A stretch of 64,000 nucleotides of DNA from Acidobacteriota bacterium (GCA_965214245.1 CBDCBL010000009.1:15551-79550); one strand, 5' to 3'. Positions 3,412 to 36,942 are shown, counted from the first letter of the stretch. Numbers and translations: made by a program. The notes: generated by a model not told the origin, from the sequence alone.

Positions 3412-3487
3412 CCGAACCTGGCACCACGCTCGCCCAAAAAGGGGCCACCGGGCAGTGCCCGCGGCTCCGTTTGGCTACAATTCCCCC

Positions 3488-5287: not shown

Positions 5288-5296
5288 CGGGGAGCC

Positions 5297-6685: not shown

Positions 6686-8151
6686 CGCTGCAGCAGCCCC
6701 TCCTCAGCGATCACCGCCTCGATGCCGGAAATGTCCATGGGGAGGAACCCCGACATGTTCTCGGCGCCGTCGTCGGTGATCAGGATCATGTCCTCGAGGC
6801 GGATGTAGATCTGCTCCTCGGGGATGCGGAACTGGGGCTCGATGGTGAACACCATGCCCGGCACCAGCACGCCGTCGCCGCGCCCCACGTCGTGCACCGC
6901 CATGCCGACACCGTGGCCGAGGCTGCCACCGCTGCGTGAAGCGGAGCGCGCGTAGCTGTCGACGAAGCGCTCCGCGGCAGCGCGGTAGTGGGGCTTGGAG
7001 AACTCCCAGCGCTCGAGGATGCGCCGCATCTCGGCGAGGGCGTCCTGCTTGATCGCTTGCACGTCGCCGGGGCGGATGTTGTCGAGGATGGCGCGATAAT
7101 AGGCGAGGTAGAAGCCGTAGAGCTCGCGTTGCCAGCCGTTGAACGTGCCGTTGACCGGCCACTGGCGCGTCACGTCGGCGACGTAGTGACCGACGTCGGG
7201 GGCGAAGTCCATCAGCAGTAACTCGCCGTCCTCCATGCGGTCGGCGCCGGCGTGGTAGTGGGCATTCCAGGCGTTGGTGCCCGCGGCGATCAACGAGTAG
7301 TAGGCGTCGGCCTGGGCGCCGTTGCGGTAGAAAATGAACTTGGCGAGACCGTCGAGCTCGTACTCCATCAGGCCGGGCTCGGTGGAGCGCATCGCCTCCA
7401 TGATGGCGAGCCCCGACAGGTCGGTGGCACGCCGGATGAGGGCGATCTCGCGCTCGCTCTTGATGAGGCGCAAGTGGTCGAGGGTGGGGGAGAGGTCCTC
7501 CACGTCGAGCGCCGGAAAGCGCTCCTCGAGCAAGCCGATGAAGTGCTCCTCGCGCGCCGGTCGGCCGTCCCACGGATCGGTCTTGATGTCGTTGATCCGG
7601 CGACGGCCGAGGTCGCGGCTCACCGAGGCGCCCTCGGCCGGCTGGAACGGGGTGTACAAGCTCGGTGCCGGGCTCCGGCGTGCGTGGCGGCGCAGGTCGT
7701 CTTCGAGGTCGCCGCTGGCACGTACGGCCTCGGCGCCGGTAAGCCACATCACCAGCTCGTTGTCCTCGGCCGAGAGCACCTTGCCCTCGCTGCTCTCGCG
7801 GCGCCCGTCGCGCCGCGGCAGATACAGCGTCGAGTTCCGGGTGGCGCCGTCGATGAGCAGGTAGGCGTGGGGGGTCTTGATGCCCGTCAGATAGTAGAAC
7901 TCGTTGCTTTGCCGGAAGCGCGCGTAGCCGACGGCGGAGGGCGCCCCCTGGACGACGGCGATGGCGCGGCGGCCGATGGCCTCGGCGACGCGCGTACGCC
8001 GGGCGGTGAGCTCCTCAGCGGGGAAGTCCTTGGTGAACAGCGGTGTTTGCGTAGGGGCCGGCGCTGGCGCTGCGATCGCCACGATCGACAGCAGTAGCAT
8101 CGCGGCGGCGGCTAGAAGCCGGCGTTTGCGGGCCCATGATGCGGTCGACAT
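6658..8151 (-). CDS. pepP: Secreted Xaa-Pro aminopeptidase (M24 family)
   Basis: There is an N-terminal signal peptide. The C-terminal pita-bread fold includes HGVGMAVHD and a creatinase-like N-domain. Confidence 0.7.
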   Translation of the reverse strand: MSTASWARKRRLLAAAAMLLLSIVAIAAPAPAPTQTPLFTKDFPAEELTARRTRVAEAIGRRAIAVVQGAPSAVGYARFRQSNEFYYLTGIKTPHAYLLIDGATRNSTLYLPRRDGRRESSEGKVLSAEDNELVMWLTGAEAVRASGDLEDDLRRHARRSPAPSLYTPFQPAEGASVSRDLGRRRINDIKTDPWDGRPAREEHFIGLLEERFPALDVEDLSPTLDHLRLIKSEREIALIRRATDLSGLAIMEAMRSTEPGLMEYELDGLAKFIFYRNGAQADAYYSLIAAGTNAWNAHYHAGADRMEDGELLLMDFAPDVGHYVADVTRQWPVNGTFNGWQRELYGFYLAYYRAILDNIRPGDVQAIKQDALAEMRRILERWEFSKPHYRAAAERFVDSYARSASRSGGSLGHGVGMAVHDVGRGDGVLVPGMVFTIEPQFRIPEEQIYIRLEDMILITDDGAENMSGFLPMDISGIEAVIAEEGLLQRYPRAPWRR

Positions 8152-13571: not shown

Positions 13572-13692
13572 GCGCGCGTTTGCTGAGGTTGAACTCAGAA
13601 GGCCGGAGTTGCGGTGGCGTCGAGGGTGAGCAGGCTGACACCCGGAAGATACCCCATTTCGACGCAGCCGGCTGACGGCTGTGCCGCGTGCT

Positions 13693-14130
13693 TTAGTCCT
13701 GCGCTGCCAACGGGTTGCGCCAGCGGAGCCCCGGGAAGCGCCCGAAGTCGGTGTCGTTGGAATGCAGCTCCGCCTGGTTCTCGATAGCGAGCGCGGCAAG
13801 ATGCAGATCGGTCGTCAACCGCCCCGCAGTGCCCGTGGCCTCTACCAAACCCGTAAACACGTCCAAGTGGCGGGGACCCGGGACGAGAACCTGAACCTGG
13901 GGCTGGTCGAGCCATTCCCGGATGTCCGACACGGCCTCCGTGGGCGAAAGCGGTTCGAGCAGAACGGCGCGACTTGTCATTACCCTGACATAGCCCATCA
14001 TGACGGCCCAGGGTAGGCCGACCGAAGTAGCGCCCGACAGACTCGCCTCCCACCAGCGCCGCGCCGCGCTGTGCTGCGGCGCGTCGGAGTTGTAGGTGTA
14101 CACCAGAAGGTTGAGATCAGGGACGATCAT
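13693..14130 (-). CDS. vapC: PIN-domain toxin VapC
   Basis: MIVPDLNLLVYTYNSDAPQH...TDLHLAALAIENQAELHSNDTDF is a PIN fold of 145 aa. Confidence 0.8.
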   Translation of the reverse strand: MIVPDLNLLVYTYNSDAPQHSAARRWWEASLSGATSVGLPWAVMMGYVRVMTSRAVLLEPLSPTEAVSDIREWLDQPQVQVLVPGPRHLDVFTGLVEATGTAGRLTTDLHLAALAIENQAELHSNDTDFGRFPGLRWRNPLAAQD

Positions 14131-14167
14131 CGTCGGCCGAGTCGTGCACCACGCGGCCCCCGAACTT

Positions 14168-14404
14168 TTAGAGCTCGAGGTCGTCCACCAGTTGGTTCAG
14201 CTTGCCGATGTCGATTCCGGCTCGAAATCCGCTGGCCCGCGGCCGGACCTTGAACGCGGTGGGTTTCTCCAGTGGTTTGGCGCCCGTCGACAAGCCGCGG
14301 CGCAAGGCGTCGTTCACGACGTCCTTGAAACTCCGGCCGCTACGCTGCGCGAGCTCCCGCAGTTTCTCCGCCACGTCGTCTTCGAGAGTTAAGGTAGTTC
14401 GCAT
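14168..14404 (-). CDS. vapB: Ribbon-helix-helix (CopG/VapB) antitoxin
   Basis: MRTTLTLEDDVAEKLRELAQRSGRSFKDVVNDALRRGL is an RHH sequence of 78 aa, 37 nt upstream of vapC. Confidence 0.75.
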   Translation of the reverse strand: MRTTLTLEDDVAEKLRELAQRSGRSFKDVVNDALRRGLSTGAKPLEKPTAFKVRPRASGFRAGIDIGKLNQLVDDLEL

Positions 14405-14407
14405 AGA

Positions 14408-14437
14408 GACATCATGATGCTCGACATGGATGATGTC
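14408..14437. promoter_or_regulatory. Putative vapBC operator: inverted repeat GACATCAT-N14-ATGATGTC
   Basis: It lies 4 nt upstream of the vapB start codon. RHH antitoxins autoregulate through palindromic operators. Confidence 0.3.
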
Positions 14438-14497
14438 AAGATCACGACGACCTGGACAGAATAGGTTGCCGCGCAGAAACGGCGCTACGTTCTCGGT

Positions 14498-15820
14498 CTA
14501 CCTCGCCCGCATCGACTCGCGATCGACCTGCGCGCCGCGCAGGTAGACGTCGGCAATCCGCCGCGTGTTCTTGATGTCGTCCAGAGAATTCGCGTTGAGC
14601 ACGATGAAGTCGGCGCTCTTGCCCGGCGCGATCGTTCCGAGATCTTCGAGCCCCATTAACTCTGCCGACGTGCTTGTCGCGGCGACGATCACCTCGGCCG
14701 GCGTCATCCCGGCGGCTACCATATCGGCCATCTCCTCGTGGGCGTTCCAGCCGGCACCCGAGCCGTCGGTCCCCAGCCCGATGGGCACGCCCGCATCTCG
14801 GAGTCTCGTGAGGTTCCGTGCCTGAATCATGAAAGACTCGCTCGGCCCACCTTCCGGGCGGTTCTCCATGCGCTCGCGCATCTGGTCGATTGCCTCAGGA
14901 GGGAGTGTCTCGGCGAGCCAGGGGAGGTCGTCGACCGACGTCAGCCGGCTGTTGGGGAGATTCGGAATCAGATAGACGTTGGGTCGTTCGGCGAGCATCG
15001 CGATGAACTCGTCGTCGACGTCCTGGTCCCGCACCCCGTGGGCGAATCCGTCGAGGCCCACGCCCAAGAGGTCTTTGGCATCCTCGAGCGCGAAAATGTG
15101 GGCCGCCACCTCGAGACCTTGTTGGTGGGCTTCATCGATGACCGCGGTGTACAGATCGGGTCGCAGCTTCTCGACCGTTCCGCCCCGGTCGTCGACCCAG
15201 ATCTTGACGACGTCCACGTTCCGCTCGGCGAGCTCCCGCACGGCTTGCCGGGCTTCCTCTTCCGTGGTGACGCCGTAGGCGCGGTCTTTCAGGTTGGCGG
15301 CGCCGGGACCGGCGTTCGGCATGGCGATTCCGCTCCCCGCCGTGAGCAGGCACGTGATGCCCGGAAGGTCATCGGCACGAACCTGAAAAGCGGTCTCGTC
15401 GGCGTCCATACCCATGCTCCGGGCCGCCGCCACGCCATGGTACGCCAGCCGCTGCAGGTGATCGATGATGTTCTCCCGGGAGTAGTTGTCCGGTCCGTTG
15501 GTCATCCCTGCAACGTCGTTGTAGCCGACGTGGAAATGCATGTCGACGATGGCCGGCATGACGGTCTTCCCGGTCAGATCTACGCGTGTGGCGCCGGGCG
15601 GTGCCGTGACCTCGCCCGCCGCTCCGACCGCGACAATGTGTCCATCTTCGACCAAGAAAGCGCCACTCTCGATGGGAGCGCTGCCGTCGCCCACGATTAG
15701 CCGGGCGCCCTCGAACAAAATCGCCTCGGATTCGCTCGTCTGCGGGGCGTCCTGCGAGGTGCAGGCGAGAGTCCCAAGAAGAAGGTAGAGCGAGCCCAAC
15801 AGCATCTTCGACGGTTTCAT
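14498..15820 (-). CDS. Secreted amidohydrolase-family metal-dependent hydrolase
   Basis: There is a signal peptide, and the sequence ...TVMPAIVDMHFHVGYND...HIFALED... is an amidohydrolase TIM-barrel. Confidence 0.75.
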   Translation of the reverse strand: MKPSKMLLGSLYLLLGTLACTSQDAPQTSESEAILFEGARLIVGDGSAPIESGAFLVEDGHIVAVGAAGEVTAPPGATRVDLTGKTVMPAIVDMHFHVGYNDVAGMTNGPDNYSRENIIDHLQRLAYHGVAAARSMGMDADETAFQVRADDLPGITCLLTAGSGIAMPNAGPGAANLKDRAYGVTTEEEARQAVRELAERNVDVVKIWVDDRGGTVEKLRPDLYTAVIDEAHQQGLEVAAHIFALEDAKDLLGVGLDGFAHGVRDQDVDDEFIAMLAERPNVYLIPNLPNSRLTSVDDLPWLAETLPPEAIDQMRERMENRPEGGPSESFMIQARNLTRLRDAGVPIGLGTDGSGAGWNAHEEMADMVAAGMTPAEVIVAATSTSAELMGLEDLGTIAPGKSADFIVLNANSLDDIKNTRRIADVYLRGAQVDRESMRAR

Positions 15821-16100
15821 GTCAGTCCTCCTCGGCTATCCCGGATTCTGAGTCGCGGCCATCGTGACGTAAGCCCAAACCTTCTTCAAGCGCCACGATC
15901 ACAGCTAATTCCGGAATTCCCTTCGACTCAGCAACTTGCGGCGCATCCGTCCGAACAGGTCCAAAGCCTTCCCGCTCGGCGCTGCAGGCGCGAGATGTCC
16001 GCAACCTTCTCGACTCCGTGAAAGACTTGGATCTAGAATATCTGCAACGCTGGGCCGCTGAACTGGAAGTGGCCGAGTCTCTCGAACGGCTTCGCGAGCA

Positions 16101-16346
16101 ATGGACGACACGACTGAAGAAGTACAGGGGGAGTTCCTAAAACGGTTCAGAGCGACCGATGCATCGCAGCGATTGCGCATGATGTCGGGAATGTTCTCAG
16201 CGGCGAAGTCGCTTGCCCGGGGCAGCGTCAGGAACGAGGCTGACCCACCGGAGGCTGCTTTCTTCAGGCGAATGTACCGGACTGATTTCAGCGCCAGCGA
16301 GCTGGCGGTAATCGCCGAGCATCTGAAAGCGGCCCACTCAGGCTAG
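16101..16346 (+). CDS. Hypothetical 81-aa protein; possibly the downstream part of a decayed gene whose upstream frame (15841-16140) lacks a start codon
   Basis: The ORF is MDDTTEEVQGEFLKRFRATDASQRL...; an adjacent frame encodes ...DVRNLLDSVKDLDLEYLQRWAAELEVAESLERLREQWTTRLKKY* with no ATG. Confidence 0.2.
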   Translation: MDDTTEEVQGEFLKRFRATDASQRLRMMSGMFSAAKSLARGSVRNEADPPEAAFFRRMYRTDFSASELAVIAEHLKAAHSG

Positions 16347-16372
16347 GCGGATGCCGCCGCCCGCTAAATCCA

Positions 16373-16413
16373 ACGCCCCTGTAGCTCAGGTGGATAGAGC
16401 ACGGGATTCCTAA
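16373..16413 (+). repeat. Partial copy of the 5' half of tRNA-Arg(CCT) (acceptor arm through anticodon loop): att-like direct repeat, left copy
   Basis: The 41 nt cgcccctgtagctcaggtggatagagcacgggattcctaa are identical to 22486-22526 and then diverge from the tRNA. Confidence 0.8.
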
Positions 16414-17007
16414 GGCCATCAGAGCCGTTTCTCGCAACTTCTTGACCTGCTTCGATTTCAGCACAAACCCTTGTTCTCAAAGGGATTGGGGACGCCGGGA
16501 CTGACAGGCCTGACGAGACCAAGAGGACTGAAATCACTGGCAAGTGGCCACGTTTTCGGCCACGCCCACTCAGGCTCTACGGCTGCGTCTTACAATAGGG
16601 TTCAGGGCGTGCCACAGCAGCGCCGCCGGGGCCGTTGTCCTCGACGCTGCTGTTTTGGGGGTAGGGGTGCAGCCTAGATCGTGCGTTGCTGGTCCTTAAA
16701 TCAGCACCGATTCGCTGCCTGTGCGATGCAGCTGTTCCAACAGAACGGCACGTTGGCGGTGAAAACCATGGGGTACGTAGTCGATGACAGCAGATCGCCT
16801 GAGGGGACAAGGACTGCAAGACGTTGCCCCCGAGGAAAATTCCCAGCTCGCTGATCAGAACCAAGAGGACTCGTCGCTCGACAAGCGCCGCTCACCCAAA
16901 GTAATCCAAAGGGCACTAGACGAGTACGGCACTTGTGACCTGTGCCCTGGAGACTGGACCGCGGATAGTGAGAATTTCTCGATAAGAAAACGAGGAGGGA
17001 GATTCTC

Positions 17008-17274
17008 GTGAAGAAGTCGAGGTTCACAGAGCAACAGATTGTGTACGCGATCAAGCAGGTCGAAGCCGGGGTGCCGATCACAGAGTTGTGTCGGAAGTAC
17101 GGAATATCCCAGCAGACGTTCTACCGCTGGCGCAGGAAGTATGGAGGGCTGGCGCCGCGCGAGCTGCAGCGGCTCAAGGAGCTTGAGCGAGAGAACACGC
17201 AACTGAAGAAGCTGGTGGCAGACCTGAGCCTCGACAAGCAGATCCTGCAGGATGTGCTCGCAAGAAAAGATTGA
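17008..17274 (+). CDS. IS3-family transposase OrfA (helix-turn-helix / leucine zipper)
   Basis: MKKSRFTEQQIVYAIKQVEAGVPITELCRKYGISQQTFYRWRRKY... Confidence 0.85.
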   Translation: MKKSRFTEQQIVYAIKQVEAGVPITELCRKYGISQQTFYRWRRKYGGLAPRELQRLKELERENTQLKKLVADLSLDKQILQDVLARKD

Positions 17275-18104
17275 AGCCCGCGCGCAAGAGAAAGCTCGTT
17301 TACCGAGCGCAGGAGCAGTATGGAGCGTCGGAACGGCGAGCGTGTGGGCTCATTCAGATTGGTCGAACAACCCACCGGTACCAGAGCATCAGGGACCCAC
17401 AGGATGAGCTGCGGTTGCGCTTGAAGGAATTGGCGGCAGCCAGACCGCGGTACGGATCTCGGCGTCTGCACATCTTGCTGCAGCGTGAGGGCTGGAAGAT
17501 CAACCACAAGCGGGTTTGCCGGCTGTATCGGGAAGAGGGCCTACAGGTACGTAGACGACGTCGTCGGAAGGTTGCGGCGCGCCCTCGGGTTCGGCTGCCG
17601 GCCCCAAGCGAGCTGAACCATCGGTGGAGTCTGGACTTCGTCGCCGACGAACTGGTGAGCGGTCGCCGTTTCCGGGTACTGACAGTCATCGACATCCATA
17701 GCGGCGAGTGCCTGGCGCTGAAGGCTGGCTTCTCGCTCACCGCACAGATCGTCACCGCACAGCTGGAGGAGATCATCGCCGAGCGCGGAGTGCCGGTCGC
17801 CCTGACCCAAGACAACGGGACGGAGTTCACCTCGAGGCACTACGATGCCTGGGCGTTCTCGGCGGGGATCCAGTTAGACTTCATCCGGCCGGGACGTCCG
17901 GTCGAGAACTGCTACATCGAGAGCTTCAACGGCAAGCTACGAGACGAGTGCTTGAGCCAGAGCTGGTTCCTGAGCCTCTCCGAGGCTCAGGAACAGCTGG
18001 ACGCATTCCGGAAGGACTACAACGAAACGAGACCGCATTCTTCTTTAGGCAACCTGCCGCCTGCCGTGTATGTCCAACTGCTGCAGGAGGTTGCAGCTAC
18101 CTGA
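17271..18104 (+). CDS. IS3-family transposase OrfB (DDE integrase core); made as an OrfAB fusion by -1 frameshift near AAGAAAAGA (17262-17270)
   Basis: ...HRWSLDFV...LTQDNGTEFTS...[14 protein letters not shown]...RPHSSLG is the DDE core. Confidence 0.85.
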   Translation: MKPARKRKLVYRAQEQYGASERRACGLIQIGRTTHRYQSIRDPQDELRLRLKELAAARPRYGSRRLHILLQREGWKINHKRVCRLYREEGLQVRRRRRRKVAARPRVRLPAPSELNHRWSLDFVADELVSGRRFRVLTVIDIHSGECLALKAGFSLTAQIVTAQLEEIIAERGVPVALTQDNGTEFTSRHYDAWAFSAGIQLDFIRPGRPVENCYIESFNGKLRDECLSQSWFLSLSEAQEQLDAFRKDYNETRPHSSLGNLPPAVYVQLLQEVAAT

Positions 18105-18235
18105 TGCCCACTAACCCGAGTTTTTCTCGTTTTCGATGGACCCAAGTTGGGGTACACCTCACAGCACCGTGTTACTGAGATAGAAGGTGGTACTAACCGC
18201 GGGGTCTGGTCACTTGCCCGTCTGATCCCCGCGTC

Positions 18236-18565
18236 ATGATGTACGCAAAACTCCTCGCCGAAGGAAAACGGCAAAGACAAGCGTACCTACTCTGTTACCC
18301 CGAAGCAGCGGAATGGACCCAGAGTTCTCTCGACTCTCAAGCCAGCATCTTGGCTGCTCACCCTAAAGTGGCTGAGTGGAGGGCCTCACACGTCCTGGGT
18401 CCCACAAACCTAGCCCGTGCAGCGACCCCTCAGGCGCTGCGGCGAACGATCGAATTAGGTCAGGGCCAGCACGGCGCAAACGCCAAGGTTCAACTCGACG
18501 CAGCGTCCTCGATACTGGACAGAGGTGGAGTGCCGAGGTCGAAGGAGTTCGCGATTGTGGCTTAG
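18236..18565 (+). CDS. Hypothetical protein inside the integrated element
   Basis: It is a 109-aa ORF in more AT-rich DNA; no recognisable motif. Confidence 0.25.
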   Translation: MMYAKLLAEGKRQRQAYLLCYPEAAEWTQSSLDSQASILAAHPKVAEWRASHVLGPTNLARAATPQALRRTIELGQGQHGANAKVQLDAASSILDRGGVPRSKEFAIVA

Positions 18566-18882
18566 GCGCTGTCGTTGAATCTCATCGCCGAACTTGAAGC
18601 AAGCCCCGACTCCGCACCTCCTGTGTCAGCGCTAGGGGGTGGCCAAGATGCCCTCGAGAAAGCACGCTCAGAATGGGCTGCTTTCTCACCCGGAAAGCAG
18701 GGCGATGACAGGACCACGGAGGCCCGTGCTGGTTCGGCTACCGGTCAAGTGGGACCATCCGGCTTGGGCCGCCGGCCTCCTGGGTAGTAGACGGACATCT
18801 TCTGCTTGGGCAAGGTTCGGCGGCCCTCTAGATTCAGCACGGCCCCGGCTGCTCCGACAGAGCGACCGGGGCCGGATGCTGT

Positions 18883-19479
18883 CTAGACTTCTATTTGGAA
18901 GCTCGCCTTTCGCACATCCTCCTTCGTAATGCCCAAGTAGGTAAGCAGAGCCCCAGGTGTCCGGTGCCCTAGCTTCTCCTGAACGACCGCCATTGGCACA
19001 CACGCTTCAAGTGCGGCTCGGCCCCATGTCTTACGCCACGAGTGCGGCGAATACACGCCGTCCGTGAGGCCCTCAGCCGCCGTGTCACGCTTGATCAGTT
19101 GCCAAGCCCGTCGCCTATCCAGCGGTTTCAATTCGCCCGTATCGGCGTCTCTGTTCCTGCTGGGGAACAATGGTGCACGGGGGTTCAACGGGTCCTGATG
19201 ACCGTCGCCGAGGTAGGCCCGAATCGCTGCCGTGATCTTGGGCGTGATGTCACACGTCACCGTCTTCTTGGTCTTCCGCTGCTTGATCCTGAACGACTTG
19301 CGGATGCCTTTCGAACCTCGCACGTCACCCACCGTGACGGCGAGCAGATCGGAGACGCGCAGCGCCCAATTGGGGCCGGCGGTCCACAGCAGCGCGTCGC
19401 GAAGATTCCCGGAGCCTTTGTGCATGTCCTGAATCACCCGTACCTTCTGGACGGGGATGTAGTCGGATGCGTCAGCCAT
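18883..19479 (-). CDS. Small tyrosine recombinase (198 aa, catalytic domain only; FimB/FimE-sized)
   Basis: The catalytic residues are spaced as expected: R in ALRVSDLLAVTVGDV, HSWRKT, GHRT, and Y in LTYLG. Confidence 0.65.
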   Translation of the reverse strand: MADASDYIPVQKVRVIQDMHKGSGNLRDALLWTAGPNWALRVSDLLAVTVGDVRGSKGIRKSFRIKQRKTKKTVTCDITPKITAAIRAYLGDGHQDPLNPRAPLFPSRNRDADTGELKPLDRRRAWQLIKRDTAAEGLTDGVYSPHSWRKTWGRAALEACVPMAVVQEKLGHRTPGALLTYLGITKEDVRKASFQIEV

Positions 19480-19488
19480 CGGAATCTC

Positions 19489-20314
19489 CTACGCCGCGAC
19501 AGGCTGAGTTTCCTCGGCCTGCCCCAGGATCAGCGCCAACACTTTCTCAACGTCCGAGACAACCTTCAGCGCCAAGCGGTGCGGGTCACCGTTACCGCTG
19601 TAGCCTTTCAGGTAGTCGTATCTGTAACCGTCGTTCGGTGCGCCATACAGCCGCGACAGAACAGCTGCTGATAGCTCGGCGACTGCTTCCTGTGTCGGTC
19701 GCTGTCCACCCTTGAGTTCGTTGCCACGTTCACCCAGAACGCGACGGTGTGCAGCGTGTGCCAGCTCGTGCCAAAACGTTTGGCTGTTGTGGGTAAACAG
19801 GGTGATCTCATCGCGGTCGATTGCGTACGAGCCGTAGGCGCTGACATTGGGCCTGCCGAGGTACTGCAACAGCCACTCCAAGCCGCTCGGCAACGTCTGC
19901 CAGCGCTGGAGGCTCTGGTGGCTCATAGTCGAACGTCGGCAGCACGTCTCCGTCGGTATCCTCGAGACGGAACACGGGAACCGCACGGAACCCCGTCAGC
20001 ACTTGCCGCTTGACCTCCTGGCCGTTGTCCTCCTCGGTGAACGTCTTGAGGTTCAGGGCCAGGATGTAGACGGCCTTGCAGCCTTTCTTGACGTGGCGGC
20101 CCATCTGTTTCCACTGCCGATAGCCGCGAGCGTCGGCAGTACCTGACAGCCAACACATGACGCGGTTGGACAGCGACCACGCGTCGCACGGCCTCACGTC
20201 GTCAGGGTGACGGGGAATCATGTTCTTGGCGATGGCGGTTTCTACCTCGCCTGTACGGAAAGCCTCAAGCAGCTGATCTAGCTGCACCTGGGCCTTGTCT
20301 GGAAGCCTGAACAT
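19489..20314 (-). pseudogene. ardC: ArdC-like antirestriction protein (ssDNA-binding N-domain plus HExxH zincin C-domain), split by a frameshift
   Basis: ORF 19808-20314 is the N-domain. ORF 19489-19986 is the C-domain with AYGSYAIDRDEITLFTHNSQTFWHELAHAAHRR. The two overlap out of frame, and together give about 280 aa. Confidence 0.5.
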
Positions 20315-20457
20315 TGGCTACCTCCTGTGGTTAGTAGTAGACGGACAAGACTATTATGCACAGGTACGTCTAGTTCGTCAACACAAAACCACCATGAAAA
20401 TGTGCTCGAATCAGCGCAAAGCCTTGTCAGGCTTAGATCAGCGGGGATTCACTCAAG

Positions 20458-20487
20458 TAGACACAAAGCCCTTCTGTCTACTTCGGC
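20458..20487. repeat. Palindromic site AGTAGACA-N11-TGTCTACT (copy 1 of a direct-repeat pair)
   Basis: It is repeated at 20765-20794. Related GTAGACG half-sites occur at 18786 and 20340. Confidence 0.5.
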
Positions 20488-20764
20488 GGTTCAAGCAACG
20501 GACGGTCTCCCACGTCGGACAGCGGGCCGTGGTCGCTCGGGAGTCGGAGCCGTTGTCGATGCCGCGGCAGCGCATCGGATCGGGCCTCAGGCAGCGCGAC
20601 GCTTCGGTAGGACGACCGGGGACGACCACGACCCGGGGGGGTGGCGGGACGGGGCATGCCAGGTCGGAGAGGTATACCTGTGACGGTGGTTACTTCCTGA
20701 AACTCGCCGAGTTGAGTCCCACCGGGGGGTTGGCGCTGTGCAAGGGGCACGCTGCGTTGCTGAG

Positions 20765-20794
20765 TAGACACAAGAGCCTTCTGTCGACTTCGAT
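20765..20794. repeat. Palindromic site AGTAGACA-N11-TGTCGACT (copy 2)
   Basis: It is a direct repeat of 20458-20487 in non-coding, AT-richer DNA between the ArdC-like gene and the IS3 remnant. Confidence 0.5.
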
Positions 20795-20864
20795 CTTTGA
20801 GCGGGGTCGCTGAGGTCGTTTTCAAGCCAGGCGAGAAGCGTGGGCCAGGTAGGGCAGGTGTCGG

Positions 20865-21132
20865 TCACCGTCCGGTCGGCACCCGCTGCTTCAATTCCTC
20901 GAACCAGTTGAGGACGACGTTGATGCCGGGGGTAGCGGGGGCGCGGTGGTCGATCCAACCGCACGGATCCTGGGCTCGTTCGAGGACGGCAGTCAGCCCG
21001 CGCAGGTCGAACTGAACGCGTTGCAGCGAAGCTTCAGCAGAATCCGTCGAAAGGCCAATGCGAACCTCGTCGTGCTGCAGCATCGTTCGAATCACGCTGG
21101 TGGCATTGCTTAACTCGAGCCGATTCTGGAGT
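20865..21132 (-). pseudogene. 3' portion of a hypothetical gene truncated by the IS3-family insertion
   Basis: The reading frame continues straight into the IS terminal repeat at ~21133, so the native N-terminus is lost. Confidence 0.3.
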
Positions 21133-21166
21133 TGCCCCGCTTTGGTGGACGGTTCCCCGCTCACAT

Positions 21167-21766
21167 TTAAGCGATCTGAGCGTGCCTCCTTTCGTACCCC
21201 ATGGGCGAGTCGTAGTCCAGGGGTGAGTGTCTGCGACGCGGGTTGTAGAAGCCCTCGATGAACTCGAAGACGGCCATGCGGGCTTCCGCCTGGGACCTGA
21301 ACCGCCGCCGGCGGTTCAGGAGCTCGCACTCGAGGGTGGCGAAGAAGCTCTCGCACATCGCGTTGTCGTAGCAGTCACCGGCTGATCCGGTCGACGGTCG
21401 CACCCCGACCTCCTGGCAGCGCTGACCGAAGGCGATCGACGTGTACTGCGTACCTTGGTCACTGTGATGAATCACCTGTTGGGGCCGTCGTTGCGAGATC
21501 GCCATGTTCAGCGCCTCGAGCACGAACTCGGTGCGCAGATGGGTCGCCATTGACCAACCGACAACGCGACGGCTGAAGACGTCCACGACGACCGACAAGT
21601 ACAAGAACCCTGCCCACGTTGGGATGTAGGTTATGTGGTGCCTCGGCTCTTCCTGTGGATCGCTTCGATCCGTGCCTGCAGCTTTGCGTCCGCCCGCGAT
21701 CGAGCCGACGGTTCCCGCCGGCGCCACGCGTAGTACCCGCTGGAGGAGACCTCCAGCACACGGCAC
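21167..21766 (-). CDS. IS3-family transposase OrfB (DDE core; short, its N-terminal part comes from the frameshift fusion)
   Basis: ...HSDQGTQYTS...DCYDNAMCESFFATLECELL...RRRHSPLDY. Confidence 0.75.
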   Translation of the reverse strand: MPCAGGLLQRVLRVAPAGTVGSIAGGRKAAGTDRSDPQEEPRHHITYIPTWAGFLYLSVVVDVFSRRVVGWSMATHLRTEFVLEALNMAISQRRPQQVIHHSDQGTQYTSIAFGQRCQEVGVRPSTGSAGDCYDNAMCESFFATLECELLNRRRRFRSQAEARMAVFEFIEGFYNPRRRHSPLDYDSPMGYERRHAQIA

Positions 21767-21800
21767 ATCGTGGCAATCGGATACTTCGCCTGGTGACCGC

Positions 21801-22151
21801 TCACGAACTCGAAGACTTCGGCGGTACTGAGTCGGTCTCCCGAGCGAACCAGGCCGCGGCTTTTGAAAGGATCTCCCGCTCTTGCTTCAGCTGGCGGTTC
21901 TCTTTCCGCAGCCGCCCCAGCTCCTCGCGCTCAGCAGTGCTGAGCCCTTCGGCGCTGCGGCCTTCGTCGCGGTCAGCCTGCTTGATCCACTGGCGAATCG
22001 TCCAGTACGACGGCTCGAACTCCTTGGCCAGCTCGGCGACGCTCCGCCCAGCTCGTGCCACTTCTATGATCCGCCGCCGAAACTCCGCCGGGTACGGCCC
22101 TCTTGTCCTTGGCATCCTGAACACCTCCCGTGTACGTCGTAAGGTGTCCAC
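21801..22151 (-). CDS. IS3-family transposase OrfA
   Basis: ...MPRTRGPYPAEFRRRIIEVARAGRSVAELAKEF...LRKENRQLKQEREILSKAAAWFARET. Confidence 0.8.
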   Translation of the reverse strand: MDTLRRTREVFRMPRTRGPYPAEFRRRIIEVARAGRSVAELAKEFEPSYWTIRQWIKQADRDEGRSAEGLSTAEREELGRLRKENRQLKQEREILSKAAAWFARETDSVPPKSSSS

Positions 22152-22163
22152 GAAATCGGGTCA

Positions 22164-22480
22164 AGTCCAAGATCCCCGGCCTGGCTCCTTTCCGGGTGTT
22201 CCACGACTGGCGGCACAGCTTTACTTCGAGGGTGTCAGAGGCAGGGATACCCGAGGCGGTGATTGCCCGGTGGCGGGGCGATGCCGACACGTCGATGCTC
22301 GCTCGCTATCGTCACATGCGGCCCGAAGCTATCGACCACTGGCGCGACGCGCTGCACGAGCGCGATGCAGCCTACCGCAACGGCAGGCTGGTAAACTTGG
22401 GCTCCCGTAGGCGCGAATTGGGGACGGATTTGGGTACGTCGGCCAAGAAGAAATCCCAAACCCCCGAAAACAGCGCCTAA
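22164..22480 (+). pseudogene. C-terminal fragment of a tyrosine integrase gene, truncated at its 5' side by the IS3 element; its 3' end abuts the tRNA-Arg 5' end
   Basis: ...FRVFHDWRHSFTSRVSEAGIPEAVIARWRGDADTSMLARYRHM... (box II and Tyr). It is a paralog of the integrase at 22591-23262. Confidence 0.7.
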
Positions 22481-22487
22481 AGTACCC

Positions 22488-22560
22488 GCCCCTGTAGCTC
22501 AGGTGGATAGAGCACGGGATTCCTAATCCCGGAGCCCAGGTTCGAGTCCTGGCAGGGGCA
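22488..22560 (+). tRNA. tRNA-Arg (anticodon CCT)
   Basis: It folds as a cloverleaf: acceptor GCCCCTG/CAGGGGC, D-arm GCTC..GAGC, anticodon stem CGGGA/TCCCG with loop TTCCTAA, T-arm CCAGG TTCGAGT CCTGG, discriminator A. Confidence 0.85.
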
Positions 22561-22590: not shown

Positions 22591-23262
22591 TCAGGCATCC
22601 GAAGTTCGCTTTTTCGCGATCCCTTGCCGCATTTCTTGCCACTCTTGCCGGGAGATAACGATCAGCTCGCCTTCGGCCAGGTTGTCGGCCTGCTTTTCAA
22701 GGGCGTCGGCGGCGCCAGTAAGAGCCGCTGATCGCATGTGCGAGTAGCGGTTCACCATCTGCGTGTCGGAGTGCCCGAGCAACGCGGCGATCCACTGTTC
22801 CGGGATGCCCTGTTCGGTGAGCCTCGACGCGTAGCCGTGGCGCAGATCGTGGATCCGGAACGGCGGCATCTTCACGCCTTCGCTTGAGCGCACCGTATGG
22901 AACGCCTTGCGGATGTTGGTGTACGGCTGGCCTGTCCGGGGTGACGGAAACAGCCACTCGGTACCGGCCAGGTTGGCGGCCTGGACCTTGCGCGCGAGCT
23001 CATCCCGTAACCGATTGGTCATCGGAATCTGGCGCGGCGTGTCGTTCTTCGTTTCGAGTGCGTCAATCGCTTCGCGGGGCGGGCCGTCTTCGCGCGGGTG
23101 CAGATCGAACCGGATGTTGCGCACCCGTAACGTCAGCGCCTCGTTCATCCGGAGCCCCGCATCCCAAAAGCACACCACGATCGCGTTTACGAATCTCGAA
23201 ACTCCTTGGTCGGGCCAGCAGGGTTCAAGGAGACCGCGCGAGAAATCCGATACCCATCTCAC
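22591..23262 (-). CDS. Tyrosine integrase (223 aa, catalytic domain; N-terminal core-binding domain apparently missing)
   Basis: ...LRMNEALTLRVRNI...FRIHDLRHGYASRLTEQGIPEQWIAALLGHSDTQMVNRYSHM. The start lies inside the thioredoxin-fragment region. Confidence 0.65.
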   Translation of the reverse strand: MRWVSDFSRGLLEPCWPDQGVSRFVNAIVVCFWDAGLRMNEALTLRVRNIRFDLHPREDGPPREAIDALETKNDTPRQIPMTNRLRDELARKVQAANLAGTEWLFPSPRTGQPYTNIRKAFHTVRSSEGVKMPPFRIHDLRHGYASRLTEQGIPEQWIAALLGHSDTQMVNRYSHMRSAALTGAADALEKQADNLAEGELIVISRQEWQEMRQGIAKKRTSDA

Positions 23263-23515
23263 CTAGCCTGTTTGAGGTTTCCGTCCACACTGGCAGGGTC
23301 GCCTCGCAAAACTTGCACGTGGTAGTGAAAAAGGCGAGAACAGTAACGCCCGACTCCACGACGGTGTCGAGCCTTCCTGTATCTTCCCCAAGGCTAGTCA
23401 AAGCGATGGGGGCGAGCACGTTTCCCACCTGCACAATCTCGAGTTCGGCTCCGCCTTGCGACCGCGCAGCTAGGTTACGCTTGAGAGCCCGATTCTGTTC
23501 GACCAGAAACAACAT
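23225..23515 (-). pseudogene. N-terminal fragment of a thioredoxin-like (TlpA/redoxin) gene
   Basis: ...VTVLAFFTTTCKFCEATLPVWTETSNRLGEMGIGFLA has the CxxC motif. The frame runs into the integrase region and there is no C-terminal half. Confidence 0.45.
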
Positions 23516-23757: not shown

Positions 23758-24378
23758 ATGACGAAAGCTAGCGTCCTGCTGGGTGCAAGCCTTGCATGGT
23801 CAATGACCCTGTTCGCCTGCGCGAGCTCCGGTGATCCGGCCACGGACGAGTGGCGGGTAACGCGCGTAGTCAATGGCACCGTCACCACTATTCGGAACGA
23901 AGCGGGATCCAAGTGGGGTAGGCCAGCGCGACTTGTCGAGGAGCTGTCGATTGGGGAGGAAGCCAGCGAGGCGCCTTTCATTTTCGGTGACGTGACCGAT
24001 ATTTGGGCGACGGAGGACCGGATCTATGTGGTCGACATACAGGTTCCTGCGGTCAGGGTGTATGACCACAACGGCAACTACATCAAGGACATCGGAGCGG
24101 CTGGTCCCGGCCCAGGAGAGTACGAGAAGCCTCACTATGTCGCGGTTGCTTCCGATGGCAGGATTTTCGTGACCGAGCTGAGTACTGTGGCCACCATCAA
24201 CGTGTACGGCGAAGACGGAAACTACTTGGAAACATGGACTTGGCCGAGAGGCGGGACCGGGATTGGGTTCTCCTTGAGCGTCGATGACGTCGTGTACGTG
24301 GGACTTCGCGACTACTTCGATCTTATTGACCAGACCCCGCGGTTAGTACCACCTTCTATCTCAGTAACACGGTGCTGA
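23758..24378 (+). pseudogene. NHL/beta-propeller-repeat lipoprotein gene truncated by an IS insertion (C-terminus encoded by the IS end)
   Basis: There is a signal peptide with a lipobox (LFAC). The last 16 residues [16 protein letters not shown] are read from the IS3 terminal repeat that begins at 24327. Confidence 0.55.
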
Positions 24379-24866
24379 CAAGATGTTGTTGAGGCCGGCG
24401 AAGCGTAGCGTAGCCGGTTTCAACAACACCGCTTCCGGTGCCGGAGGTCGATAGCCCAGCGAGCTGTGCGGTCGTACGCGGTTGTACTGCTGGCGCCATC
24501 TCTCGATCAGAACCTTTGCCTCCTTCAGCGTGTAGAAGATCTCCCCGTTCAGCAGCTCGTCTCTGAGCTTGCCGTTGAAGCTCTCCACATAGCCGTTCTC
24601 CCATGGGGAGCCCGGCTCGATGAACAGCGTGCCGACGCCGAGCCGGCCCAACCAGTCGCGAACCGCCTCGGCGGTGAATTCCGGTCCGTTATCTGACCTG
24701 ATGTGCGCTGGAATACCTCGATGAACGAACAGTCGTCCTAGTCGGTGAAGTACGTTCTCGGAGTTGAGCTTCCGCGCCACGTCGATTGCAAGGCTCTCCC
24801 GTGTGTACTCGTCGACGATCGTCAGCAGCCTCATAGCCCGACCGTCATGCGTCCGGTGGTGGACGA

Positions 24867-26234
24867 GGATGTGTCCCGAAGTTTGTAGAAAATCGTCTGG
24901 CGTGGCTCCGAGCTTGGACGTTTGACGTTACCTGCTACGCGGCCAACTCCTCCTGTTGGTCGATGATCGCGGCGAGATGCCGGTACCCGTCGATGCGGCG
25001 CATGCGGATCTGCCCGAACGCGATCAGCCCCCACAGCAGCGTCACCCCGGCCGCCTCGGTGCTGAACGATCCCTGGGTCTTGGTACGGCGACGGAACTCG
25101 CGGTTGAGGTTCTCCAGTGGGTTCGTCGTGCGCAGCGTCTTGCACATCGGTTTGGGGAACTCGTAGAAGGTCAGCAGCACCAGCCCCGCTTCCTCGAGGC
25201 TGCGCGCCACCGCCGGCACCAACCTCGACCACTTGCGCACGAAGTTGCTGTACGCGGCCCTCGCCTCGCTGCCGTTTGCCGCCTTCACGATGCGGTCCCA
25301 GTCTCGTTTCAGCTCGTCGTGGGCGTGTGACGGGCAATGCTTCAACAGATTCTTCCACTTGTGCTGAAGGCAGCGCTGCACCTTCGCTTCGGGCCACACC
25401 GTCGTCGCCTTGGCCAGCCCTTTGTGGCCGTCGGCGATGATCAGCCGGGGCGGCCGAAGACCTCTTTGCTCTAGGTCCTCGATCAGCCACTTCCAGTGAC
25501 ACCCGGCCTCCGAAGCGGCCCGACGCAACGCCACCAACACCTTGCGCCCATCTTCCGCCACTCCCAGCGCGGCGAAGATCGGCACCGACACGACCTGCCG
25601 CGCCAACCTCACCTTCAGGTGGAACCCGTCCAGGTACACGATCGGGTACGACTCACCGGTCAGATCGCGCTCGCACCACGTCCCGAACAGCTTCTTCAGC
25701 CGCCCCACCACCCTTGAGATCGCGCTCTTCGAGAGGTTCGCTTCACCCAGCAGCGGCGCGAGCGCCTTGCGGATCCGTCGGCTATTTGCACCCGCCAGGT
25801 ACACCCCTAGAATCGCCTCGTCGACTTCCTCGGTGCGCCGTTGATACCGCGGCAGGATCGTGCTGCGGAACTCCCCGGTGCTGCCGTCCTCTCGCAGCAG
25901 CCGTCCCCGTGGTACCTCCAGATCCTGCGGCCCCTGCGCCATCGTGATCTGCCGCCGATACGTCCCGTGCCGATATCCTCGCCGCGAGCCGTTGCGCTCG
26001 TACGGCCCGCATCCCAACGCCTCGGCGAGCTCCTCCTCAAGCGTGATCGTAATCGCCTCCTGGATGCGGCTGTGCAGCAGCTCCTGGATGGCGCTACGGA
26101 ACTCGATGACCGATACCTCTCCCGTGCTACCGTTGCTCATGGTGTGACCTCCTTGTTGTCGCCGTTTCCAGCGACTCGTTTTTCCTACTCGGAGGTTACG
26201 CCATTTCTTTTTCTACAGGACTCGGGACGGATCC
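24867..26234 (-). mobile_element. IS256-family insertion sequence (1368 bp) with an 8-bp TSD GTGGACGA
   Basis: Imperfect ~26-bp terminal inverted repeats GGATGTGTCCCGAAGTTTGTAGAAAA / TTTTCTACAGGACTCGGGACGGATCC. The TSD is at 24859-24866 and 26235-26242, and it restores the IS3 OrfB frame. Confidence 0.8.
24935..26140 (-). CDS. IS256-family (mutator-type) transposase
   Basis: It is 401 aa: ...YLDGFHLKVR...ADGHKGL...CLQHKWKN... Confidence 0.9.
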   Translation of the reverse strand: MSNGSTGEVSVIEFRSAIQELLHSRIQEAITITLEEELAEALGCGPYERNGSRRGYRHGTYRRQITMAQGPQDLEVPRGRLLREDGSTGEFRSTILPRYQRRTEEVDEAILGVYLAGANSRRIRKALAPLLGEANLSKSAISRVVGRLKKLFGTWCERDLTGESYPIVYLDGFHLKVRLARQVVSVPIFAALGVAEDGRKVLVALRRAASEAGCHWKWLIEDLEQRGLRPPRLIIADGHKGLAKATTVWPEAKVQRCLQHKWKNLLKHCPSHAHDELKRDWDRIVKAANGSEARAAYSNFVRKWSRLVPAVARSLEEAGLVLLTFYEFPKPMCKTLRTTNPLENLNREFRRRTKTQGSFSTEAAGVTLLWGLIAFGQIRMRRIDGYRHLAAIIDQQEELAA

Positions 26235-26620
26235 GTGGACGAAGTCATACGCCCAGACATGATCCTTGTTCTCGGGGCGCAGTCGGATGCAGGAGCCATC
26301 GTTGAGCCACAGCCGTGCTCGCTTGGGCTGTTTCTTCGGTACTTTCAGCCCCTCGCGCCGCCAGATCCGTTGCACCCGCTTGTGGTTCACGAGCCAGCCC
26401 TCCATGCGCAGTAGCGCCGTCACTCGCCGATACCCGTAGCGGCCATACTCTCGGGCTAGGTTCACGATCCTCTCCTCCGTCAGCACCTGCTCGTCGTCCG
26501 GTTGCCGTGGCACGTACCGCTGCGTCGTGCGCGACTGTTTCAGCACCCGGCACGCTCGTCGCTCGGAAACGCCCAGCCTCCGCCGAACATGCTCAACCGC
26601 ATCTCGGCGACGTGCCGGGC

Positions 26621-26899
26621 TCAGAAGTTTCCCTCCGCAACTTCCTTCAGGATCGAAAGATCCAGCTCCTTTTCCGCCACAATCTTCTTGAGCCGGACGT
26701 TCTCCTTCTCAAGTTGCTTCAGCCGCCTGGCCTCGTCGACCCTCAGCCCCCCGTACTCGCGTCGCCACCGGTAGTAGGTGTGCTCGGTGATTGCTAGCTT
26801 GCGGCAGGCATCCTTGACCGTCGCGCCGCGGGCCAGCTCCACCTCAGCCTCCCGTAGCTTCCGTACGATCTGCTCTGCGCTGTGCCTCTTCGCCGGCAT
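26621..26899 (-). CDS. IS3-family transposase OrfA of the disrupted IS
   Basis: MPAKRHSAEQIVRKLREAEVELARGATVKDACRKLAITEHTYYRWRREYGG... Confidence 0.8.
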   Translation of the reverse strand: MPAKRHSAEQIVRKLREAEVELARGATVKDACRKLAITEHTYYRWRREYGGLRVDEARRLKQLEKENVRLKKIVAEKELDLSILKEVAEGNF

Positions 26900-27101
26900 T
26901 CTAACCTCCCTTTTTCGACCCGGATCGTGAGATTACCTCTGGATCCGTTTTGGGGGGTCAGGTCACCCGTCGATTTTCTTTGCGGGGCTCGGCGCGTCGG
27001 CCGCACGGAAGGTAGGCGAAACGTAGGCGCCAGGGGAATTACGCCGAAACCCCCTAAGGCGAAGGAACGCCGTAAGTTGTTGATATCAAGGGGTTTAAAA
27101 A

Positions 27102-28686: not shown

Positions 28687-28740
28687 TCAAGAACGGCGAA
28701 GCTCCGACAAGTTGCCGAGGCTGTTGCCGTCGTAAGTAGA

Positions 28741-28768
28741 TCCATGACACTTTCACCACGGCCTGCTA
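28741..28768. repeat. 33-bp inverted-repeat family, degenerate A-form copy (tCCATGACACTTTCACCACGGCCTGCTA)
   Basis: It ends 13 nt before the DUF2065 start codon. Upstream DNA resembles the interior of the family's other copies. Confidence 0.6.
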
Positions 28769-28781
28769 GCATCGACGCACA

Positions 28782-28982
28782 ATGGACTGGCAGCTCATAT
28801 TGCTGGCCTTGGGGTTGGCGTTGATCATCGAAGGGCTGCCGTACTTTCTGTTTCCCGTGGGGACGCTCCGGACTCTCCGTCAGCTTGAGAGCCTCGGCCC
28901 CGAGGCGGCCCGGTTTTTGGGCCTCGCGGCGTTGATTGCCGGTCTCGTGCTGCTCTTTGTGGGAAGGCTGGCGGCGGGGTGA
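28782..28982 (+). CDS. DUF2065-family small membrane protein
   Basis: MDWQLILLALGLALIIEGLPYFLFP... is 66 aa. It is bracketed by A-form (28741-28768) and B-form (28980-29013) repeats, and its TGA stop is the first 3 nt of the B repeat. Confidence 0.6.
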   Translation: MDWQLILLALGLALIIEGLPYFLFPVGTLRTLRQLESLGPEAARFLGLAALIAGLVLLFVGRLAAG

Positions 28983-29013
28983 GCAGGCCGTGGTGAAAGT
29001 GTGATGGGTCTGG
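28980..29013. repeat. 33-bp inverted-repeat family, B-form copy (TGAGCAGGCCGTGGTGAAAGTGTGATGGGTCTGG)
   Basis: It contains GGTG-N8-ATG. The ATG at 29004 is the likely start codon of the downstream HEAT-repeat lipoprotein. Confidence 0.7.
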
Positions 29014-29759
29014 TTGAGGTGAGGCGGCTCCCACTGGTTGCTGGGATGGTAGCGGCGCTCGCCGCCGGTTGTGCGACGGCCGACCCGACACCCGCTGTCG
29101 TGAAGCGGATCATCGATGAGCTCAGCACCCAACAGTTCGGACGCGCCACGGCGTTGTACACCGAGCGGGAGGAGATGGTCCTCAGCCCGCCCGCGGCGCC
29201 CGGTTGGCGGCGCGGCATGGATCACGAAGACGCGACCGTTCGCGAGTGGTCGATCGACGCCCTCAGCCGCATCGCATTGCCGGAAGACGTGCCTCTCGTC
29301 GTCGCGGCGTTGGACGATCCCTTCCGGCGGGTTCAGGAGGCGGCGGCGCAGGGCCTCATCGACATGGACCCGGTGGCGGCGCGCGTCGCTTTCATCGACC
29401 GTCTGTCGGAGGGTGACCCGAGGCAACAGACGATTGCGGCGCAGGGCCTCGCCGATCTGGGCGATACGGAGGCGGTGCCGGCGCTCGTCGGGCAACTCAG
29501 CGACGAACGGCTCGCCGCCGGGTTGCGTGGCGTGATCGCGCAGTCGCTGTCCCGCCTCGGCGATGTTCGCGCCGTGGAGCCCCTCGCCGCGCTGGCGGGC
29601 AACTCGGATGCGGATACGCAGTTGCGACGTACGGCCGTCGAGGCGCTGGCCGGTATCGAGGGCGAGGCGACGGTGCGGGCTCTGGAGAGCTTGCTGGAAG
29701 CGGACGACTCCTATGTCCAGGACGTTGCGCGGCGCGTCCTCGACGCGCTCAAACGGTAA
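29004..29759 (+). CDS. HEAT-repeat (PBS-lyase-like) probable lipoprotein
   Basis: The signal sequence is MGLVEVRRLPLVAGMVAALAAGC. The body has repeated ...AxxAL..IGD..AVP.L...L motifs. Confidence 0.6.
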   Translation: MGLVEVRRLPLVAGMVAALAAGCATADPTPAVVKRIIDELSTQQFGRATALYTEREEMVLSPPAAPGWRRGMDHEDATVREWSIDALSRIALPEDVPLVVAALDDPFRRVQEAAAQGLIDMDPVAARVAFIDRLSEGDPRQQTIAAQGLADLGDTEAVPALVGQLSDERLAAGLRGVIAQSLSRLGDVRAVEPLAALAGNSDADTQLRRTAVEALAGIEGEATVRALESLLEADDSYVQDVARRVLDALKR

Positions 29760-33267: not shown

Positions 33268-33282
33268 TTTCCGAGCTCTAGC

Positions 33283-33315
33283 AGACCCATCACACTTTCA
33301 GCAGGGCCTGCTCAA
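33283..33315. repeat. 33-bp inverted-repeat family, solo variant A-form copy
   Basis: GCAGACCCATCACACTTTCAGCAGGGCCTGCTC sits in the divergent tsaB/mutS intergenic region. Confidence 0.6.
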
Positions 33316-36660: not shown

Positions 36661-36701
36661 TCGGCACGTGAGGTCAGGTTAGGGCAAGTGTAAACAGGCC
36701 C

Positions 36702-36900
36702 TAGCAGGCCGTGGTGGAAGTGTGATGGGTCTGGCGCGCCCGCAACCCCCACGCGCGCCCCTGCGGGTTGCGACGACAAAAGGCCATCTGCGGCGTTGCC
36801 GCTCCTCGACGATGTATCAACATCGCCGTAGTCGCGGCGCCTTGCATCTGGCCTCTTGTCGTCGCAACCAGACCCATCACACTTTCACCACGGCCTGCTA
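36702..36900. mobile_element. MITE/REP-like element (199 bp) with perfect 33-bp terminal inverted repeats
   Basis: TAGCAGGCCGTGGTGGAAGTGTGATGGGTCTGG ... CCAGACCCATCACACTTTCACCACGGCCTGCTA. The interior is hairpin-rich and 95 bp of it resemble copy 46402-46681. Confidence 0.75.
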
Positions 36901-36942
36901 GGAGGGGGAACCGTTCAGCGCGTCACGCTACCATCGGGCGCA

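Follow-up and report, generated by a model that had tools for sequence, protein, structure and literature searches.

A probable integration scar of reversed polarity at a tRNA-Arg(CCT) gene of an uncultured Acidobacteriota bacterium

Integration of islands and prophages into transfer RNA (tRNA) genes conventionally duplicates the 3' portion of the gene, and the anticodon stem-loop is among the positions where integrases insert (PMC1635311, summarising the classification of Williams 2002). Island finders of the Phage_Finder type search for a displaced 3' fragment of the tRNA (PMC1635311). Elements that integrate into the 5'-distal part of a tRNA gene have been documented but are infrequent, and bacterial and archaeal examples are cited, Zhao and Williams (2002) among others (PMC6563490). 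In the present study a stretch of 64,000 nucleotides (nt) from an Acidobacteriota bacterium (GCA_965214245.1, CBDCBL010000009.1:15551-79550), referred to as the window throughout, was analysed with regard to a tRNA-Arg(CCT) gene whose 5' half is repeated in direct orientation some 6 kb upstream and whose two ends are each faced by the remnant of a tyrosine integrase gene, int1 on the 5' side and int2 on the 3' side.

The 5'-distal integrators of these accounts resemble this locus in that the 5'-distal part of the tRNA is displaced or duplicated, the rebuilt gene receiving its 5' portion and hence its upstream region from the element, and in that a tyrosine integrase gene adjoins the attachment (att) site. 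With conventional tRNA-targeting islands and prophages the locus shares the tRNA target, a repeat that ends in the anticodon loop (where the crossover was presumably located), the restoration of a functional gene, and an integrase gene that lies beside the att site with its 3' end facing it. The two differ in what is duplicated: in the conventional case it is the 3' portion, the 5' half and the promoter remaining with the chromosome, whereas beside int1 it is the 5' portion. An earlier note on this DNA, made from the sequence without database searches, had called the polarity unusual; it is rare, but has already been described (PMC6563490), and the locus is a new, decayed example of that polarity in an uncultured bacterium of soil type and no new mechanism. 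The best amidohydrolase matches weakly suggest a place near the Vicinamibacterales.

The repeated half of tRNA-Arg(CCT) and the integrase gene beside it

The window holds one intact tRNA-Arg(CCT) gene, and a repeat search recovered an exact direct repeat of 40 nt (Table 1), of which one copy lies within this gene and the other, the stump, upstream of it. The repeated block extends from the base preceding the tRNA to the last base of the anticodon loop (bases -1 to 39), the loop itself reading TTCCTAA (22520-22526). Directly past the block the stump continues with GGCCAT and the gene with TCCCGG, so that identity stops at the boundary between loop and stem, and on neither side does homology extend beyond the block. 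The stump was not called as a tRNA by ARAGORN or Rfam, and no additional copy of the 3' portion of tRNA-Arg(CCT) was present in the window, even when three mismatches were allowed. The recurrence of an exact 40-mer within 64 kb is far beyond chance. The exact repeat had been reported in the earlier note with a length of 41 bp from position 16373; its exactness was confirmed, but not its length, since 16373 is A and 22486 is C (the string quoted there is itself 40 nt long), while the placement of its end in the anticodon loop, followed by unrelated DNA, proved correct.

Because only the 3' portion is duplicated in conventional integration, a 5' half repeated in direct orientation requires incoming DNA that carried the 5' portion of the tRNA. 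The anticodon stem-loop being a known position of integrase insertion, the repeat ends where a crossover is plausible. No end of an insertion sequence (IS) is located at the stump junction. The nearest, that of the IS3-family element IS#1, is 520 bp away, and the target duplication CTTG of IS#1 is intact (16932-16935 and 18213-18216), which indicates a simple late insertion; hence IS#1 did not create the junction.

The third line of evidence comes from int1, the stop codon of which precedes the 5' end of the tRNA by 7 nt. When homologues of the int1 stub were sought, two short open reading frames (ORFs) were obtained, both from another metagenome. One contig (L086) corresponds to window positions 22243-22539 at 98.3% nucleotide identity and carries unrelated DNA, and no stump, upstream; the other (L085) corresponds to 22235-22505 at 81%, where the integrase frame begins with RHSF and an unrelated ORF comes before it. 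The distance from the int1 stop codon to the 5' end of the same tRNA is 7 nt in every one of the three contexts, and in each of them int1 is truncated at another 5' position. Over 89 codons, int1 of the window and of L085 are separated by about 1.0 synonymous substitutions per site (dS), with a ratio of nonsynonymous to synonymous rates (dN/dS) of 0.14, so that these copies diverged mostly as working genes while keeping their place beside the tRNA. Such recurrence would be expected if the integrase gene and the 5' portion of the tRNA formed the int-attP module of an element family, attP denoting the att site of the free element, and would not be given by a one-off rearrangement. The integrase gene previously said to abut the tRNA thus does so with its 3' end, but is a C-terminal fragment of 102 codons and not a whole gene.

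Some further features of int1 were recorded. The HxxR and catalytic tyrosine region is retained in int1 as well as in int2. Where int2 reads LLGHSD, int1 reads RWRGDAD (22271-22291), with Asp in place of the His of the LGH motif, which we take to be a conserved active-site residue of tyrosine recombinases; as RWRGDAD is kept in the 81%-identical L085 copy, the change was already present in a working enzyme. The longest invariant run in the 3' end of int1 comprises nine codons and is not significant (p = 0.08), and since a consensus scan was also negative, a promoter or arm site embedded in this 3' end gained no support. An amidohydrolase gene beside the int1 stub in L086 was considered as conserved synteny with the one left of the stump and was dismissed as a 53%-identical paralogue.

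Taken together, the landmark-precise ends of the repeat, the lack of an IS end at the junction and the conserved int1-tRNA module argue for an int1-type element whose attP contained tRNA bases -1 to 39. With moderate confidence we therefore regard the 40-bp repeat as the left and right att sites (attL and attR) left by a tyrosine-integrase element that integrated into tRNA-Arg(CCT) with reversed polarity. The genes of plasmid or conjugative-element type in the interior were also counted in favour of this interpretation, as were the lowered G+C content of the region and the recurrence of the arrangement in independent assemblies from several samples. Of the proposal in the earlier note that an element carrying its own tRNA 5' half crossed over in the anticodon loop, the presence of the 5' half on the incoming DNA is upheld by the geometry of the repeat and the recurrence of the int1-tRNA junction, and the position of the crossover is deduced.

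The course of events could then be envisaged as follows. In the free element attP would have been situated immediately downstream of int1 and have comprised the tRNA bases from -1 to the end of the anticodon loop. When it recombined with the chromosomal gene, probably within the 7-nt loop as the most likely place of crossover, the chromosome's own 5' half would have ended up as a dead stump attached to the element's far arm, and a working gene would have been rebuilt from the 5' half of the element and the resident 3' half. During later decay an IS3-family element would have removed all of int1 but the last 102 codons, another would have inserted near the left arm, the ArdC gene would have been frameshifted and the rest would have become a patchwork. 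Autonomous activity is not to be expected of an element whose int1 is truncated. We infer that integration was carried out by int1, that the interval goes back to a single element and, from the geometry, that the rebuilt tRNA is now transcribed from element DNA.

Table 1. Features of the window from the amidohydrolase gene to IS#2 (positions counted from the first nucleotide of the window; a dot marks features without strand)
Feature	Position	Strand	Basis and remarks
Amidohydrolase gene	14498-15820	-	Left of stump
Stump, displaced 5' half of tRNA-Arg(CCT), putative attL core	16374-16413	+	Exact repeat of 22487-22526
Non-coding or unassigned DNA beside stump, 522 bp, putative element arm (P')	16414-16935	.	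G+C 0.58; ORFs without Pfam match; joins 18217 onward once IS#1 is removed
IS#1, IS3 family	16936-18212	+	orfA HTH_Tnp_1; orfB HTH_21/rve/rve_3; termini TGACC...GGTCA
ORF of 109 amino acids (aa)	18236-18565	+	No Pfam or PHROG match
Small tyrosine recombinase, complete, 198 aa, plasmid-borne type	18883-19479	-	PF00589, E = 7e-15; phrog_216
ArdC-like anti-restriction gene, two overlapping frames, pseudogene	19489-20314	-	ArdcN PF08401 in 19808-20314; phrog_7245 in both pieces
Palindrome, two copies, 28-30 nt, AGTAGACA..TGTCTACT	20455-20483 and 20763-20790	.	Repeat search
3' remnant of unrelated gene, cut by IS#3	20865-21145	-	ORF call; product ends ...NWFEELKQRVPTGR; no Pfam match
IS#3, IS3-family remnant	21146-22169	-	orfA/orfB rve domains; ends TGGAC...GTCCA
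int1, last 102 codons of a tyrosine integrase	22172-22480	+	PF00589 C-terminal match; stop codon 7 nt before tRNA
Intact tRNA-Arg(CCT), putative attR	22488-22560	+	ARAGORN; Rfam tRNA, 67.5 bits; repeat search; repeat copy 22487-22526 is base -1 plus bases 1-39
int2, C-terminal 223 codons (two-thirds) of a second tyrosine integrase	22591-23262	-	PF00589, E = 9e-20; N-terminal domain missing
DUF5128 beta-propeller gene	23758-24378		Truncated by IS#2
IS#2, IS3 family	24327-26965	-	Split by IS256/Mutator-family transposase gene, 24935-26140

Weighing the integration scar against other origins

Several observations weigh against this interpretation, some of them against the interval as what is left of one element. 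The interval contains the remnant of an unrelated gene, IS#3 has no target duplication (its two flanks do not match), and the outer end of IS#3 is found at a different locus in a contig from a third sample (L103, coverage 1.73x). This contig matches the window at 99.9% identity over a stretch that extends from the purL side and takes in the stump, IS#1, the recombinase, the ArdC gene and the IS3 remnant; where IS#3 has its outer end (window 22169/22170), the contig departs into a 134-codon unannotated ORF that to us resembles the N-terminal part of an M49-type peptidase, and then come OCD_Mu_crystall and FG-GAP_2 genes. The segment facing window position 22170 is L103 1-4221, and neither int1 nor tRNA-Arg follows IS#3 there. 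The IS#3 copy of L103 is 216 bp longer (L103 4756-4971, absent from the window at 21636/21637) and has no target duplication either. Since neither copy has one, IS#3 mediated at least one rearrangement, and the present spacing of the repeats, 6.1 kb, may be secondary.

The DNA to the left of the stump (15915-16373) has a G+C content of 0.60 and may not be the native flank. An empty site between the amidohydrolase gene and the tRNA, for which the earlier note had proposed a comparison with relatives, was not found: in the closest genomes by amidohydrolase identity, L003 (87%, the upper limit in a GTDB scan) and L088 and L089 (90%, Logan contigs), synteny with the window breaks off at about 15898-15914, some 460-475 bp short of the stump, and no tRNA is present there. 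At the break they carry glycosyltransferase or Fic genes, Fic being found on the Logan contigs (break at about 15914). In JGI metagenomes an exact scan for the predicted attB junction, the unoccupied chromosomal site, and a degenerate pattern of flank plus 5' half each gave 0 matches. Viral contigs scanned for the 5' half, int1, int2 and the int1/int2 alignment yielded nothing, or only relatives of 35-40% identity; exact-protein look-ups recovered only occupied strains, and none of these searches brought up an intact relative of the element. The suggested look for a promoter upstream of 22488 was likewise fruitless, as no sigma-70-type consensus was detectable upstream of either repeat copy. 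Furthermore, the attP core deduced from attL, CGGGA-TTCCTAA-GGCCA, shows poor dyad symmetry, and the evidence from int1 is limited to three sequence contexts, with no intact copy among them.

Alternatively, though in our view this is rather doubtful, the stump would be a true att scar of reversed polarity and the 6.1-kb interval would not be the remnant of one element. Recombination between IS3 copies would then have joined a stump-bearing block (16414-21145) to the int1-tRNA block, and the repeat copies would once have been further apart or would stem from different integration events, for instance in a tandem array. Consistent with this are IS#3 without target duplication between two genes that are both 5'-truncated, the identical left block of L103 that includes the stump, runs to the outer end of IS#3 and continues into other genes, the plasmid-like interior genes that are unrelated to int1, and the L086 contig, where the int1 stub and the tRNA are preceded by entirely different DNA without a stump. 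However, at its coverage L103 could represent a chimeric read, and its IS#3 also lacks a target duplication and is thus not evidently ancestral. As it is improbable, and less parsimonious than decay in place, that a chance rearrangement should set attL and attR 6 kb apart in direct orientation, we judge the arrangement of the window more likely to be ancestral than that of L103. The single element of about 6 kb that the earlier note had delimited gained no firm support, given that the interval holds IS#1 with its intact target duplication, IS#3, which has none, and the remnant of an unrelated gene, and that L103 joins IS#3 to another locus.

It seems improbable that the stump is what remained of a second tRNA-Arg(CCT) copy, derived from a segmental duplication or from incoming DNA and truncated by illegitimate recombination or an IS-associated deletion. 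The region did experience several IS-mediated deletions, as IS#2 and IS#3 without target duplications indicate, and no empty site was recovered with which the repeat could be matched to a recombination junction. Against such an origin, both ends of the identity block coincide with tRNA landmarks, base -1 and the loop-stem boundary, homology stops at the block on either side, and no IS end lies at the junction, the duplication of IS#1 being intact. Moreover, random truncation offers no explanation of why, in several diverged contexts, the intact copy should have its 5' end abutted by the 3' end of an integrase gene. A long-read misjoin at repeated tRNA or IS sequence, conceivable because the source contigs are metagenome long-read assemblies of only 7-9x coverage, is effectively refuted by the whole structure at 99.8-99.9% identity in contigs from two samples, by the stump junction in three independent long-read assemblies (L001, L002 and L103), the last from a third sample, and by int1-tRNA-int2 junctions in short-read contigs (L086 and L091) from two further samples.

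Insertion sequences, repeats and genes around the scar

All the components that had been listed for the interval, namely the IS3-family IS, the 198-aa recombinase, the frameshifted ArdC-like gene, the palindromic repeats and the IS3 remnant, were located there. Its G+C content is lower than that of the surroundings, as had been noted, but the low-G+C zone is not confined to it: values of 0.58-0.63 were measured from about 15915 to about 26950, compared with 0.66 on both sides, so that the zone exceeds the repeat-bounded interval and includes DNA on either side of both the stump and the tRNA. Between the amidohydrolase gene and the stump lie about 550 bp of low-G+C DNA with an 81-codon ORF without family match. 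The term 'mobilizable' used in the earlier note was not borne out, because in the tested ORFs of 16414-22170 no domains of a relaxase or a type IV secretion system were found, and it has nothing behind it but the ArdC-N pseudogene and the small plasmid-type recombinase.

The 198-aa protein resembles small plasmid-borne tyrosine recombinases (about 175-200 aa). On 1082 plasmid records, recombinase genes of about 175-190 aa align with 91-96% of its length, at an identity of only about 33-35%. Unlike its plasmid kin, it resides in a chromosomal scar beside an ArdC pseudogene. A role as the tRNA integrase is unlikely, as it is a complete, small enzyme of plasmid type without meaningful similarity to int1 or int2. 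Directly upstream of the ardC-recombinase gene pair the two palindrome copies are placed 280 nt apart; their layout is superficially like that of an invertible switch, an origin or an operator, and the orientation of the segment does not vary among the strain contigs.

Around the stump, a 13-nt exact motif, GCCCACTCAGGCT, was observed 30 nt upstream (16332-16344) and 150 nt downstream (16564-16576) and nowhere else in the window. GATTTCAGC is likewise common to both stump flanks, in the same order as GCCCACTCAGGCT. Two matches were reached in 1 of 100 shuffles. These motifs could be protein-binding sites or due to chance. Extended homology between the left flank of the stump and the DNA to its right was rejected, since the local alignment score was no better than that of shuffled sequence.

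To the right of int2 follow a thioredoxin-like ORF fragment, the truncated DUF5128 gene, IS#2 and then tRNA-Glu, tRNA-Lys and purA. The first of these, a 96-codon ORF with a CxxC motif (23225-23515) and no Pfam or PHROG match, presumably TlpA/thioredoxin-like, runs into the 5'-truncated int2, suggestive of a chromosomal gene that was fused to the int2 stub by a deletion. IS#2 has no target duplication (flanks TTAT and CCCG) and truncates the DUF5128 gene, both indicative of an IS-mediated deletion in the stretch from this gene to tRNA-Glu. The right ends of IS#1 (18162-18212) and IS#2 (24327-24377) are perfect inverted repeats of 51 nt, and the adjoining IS sequence is only 77-86% identical; so sharp a drop from 100% to about 80% suggests gene conversion or a terminal module common to both elements. 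An inversion between these right ends, which are spaced nearly like the direct repeat, was excluded by the intact CTTG duplication of IS#1.

Further to the right, dispersed repeats of 35-49 nt with the core AGCAGGCCGTGGTGAAAGTGTGATGGGTCTGG (28721-28769, 28971-29018, 33266-33314, 36700-36734 and 36853-36902) are scattered among core genes beyond purA in both orientations, some as nearby inverted pairs, and look like a family of the repetitive extragenic palindromic (REP) or miniature inverted-repeat transposable element (MITE) type. With regard to strain variation, L002 (sample ERZ25068966) carries an insertion of about 1.4 kb in IS#1 at window position 17146 (L002 7278-8673), which encodes a 317-aa protein without Pfam match. 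In L003 the RHH/PIN toxin-antitoxin pair beside the amidohydrolase gene (window 13676-14493) is replaced by about 4.5 kb of other DNA (3069-7562), a second variable spot next to the same gene.

Two related integrases and the polarity of integration

The second integrase remnant, int2, which the earlier note did not list, reads toward the tRNA's 3' end from a distance of 30 nt, and the tRNA thus lies between two converging integrase stubs. Across their last 71 residues int1 and int2 share 44% identity (E = 9e-17). Homologues of int2 are mostly 330-390 aa long, so that both copies in the window are truncated. Several of these homologues possess the PF13356 arm-binding domain in addition to PF00589, which is the architecture of P4-like integrases; identities are only 30-38%, and the copies in the window lack the N-terminal domain. 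By its position int2 fits the conventional layout, being situated where a 3'-duplicating integrase would be, and a distant relative on a viral contig (L101) is conventional as well, with its integrase converging on the 3' end of tRNA-Arg(TCT). The element of int2 was evidently deleted up to the stub, which fits IS#2 without target duplication and the truncated neighbouring genes. Probably, then, the same tRNA was hit by elements from both sides.

A further idea, which we regard as speculative and more likely wrong than right, is that two sister integrase lineages use the anticodon stem-loop of tRNA-Arg(CCT) in opposite polarities, int1 with the 5' half and int2 with the 3' half, that the resident gene is built wholly from halves donated by elements, and that stubs were kept on both sides for their upstream and downstream signals. 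The stem-loop, CGGGA-TTCCTAA-TCCCG, is dyad-symmetric except for the loop, and a related integrase could therefore use the site either way, depending on the orientation of the asymmetric overlap relative to the arms, which would explain why the tRNA has related stubs on either side. If true, this would be a natural example in which flipping an asymmetric 7-nt overlap relative to the integrase arms reversed the orientation of integration.

As for the scar of reversed polarity itself, its practical value is modest, for it is decayed and belongs to an uncultured organism. Because island finders seek displaced 3' fragments, elements of this polarity are under-counted, and each well-delimited case helps to calibrate such tools. 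The two related stubs converging on one tRNA suggest that polarity can switch within an integrase family, which would be useful to know for integrase-based genome engineering. If the int1 family does carry the 5' half of the tRNA, the host gene relies on element DNA for its upstream region, and this could explain why a 3' stub of int1 has survived in every context seen.

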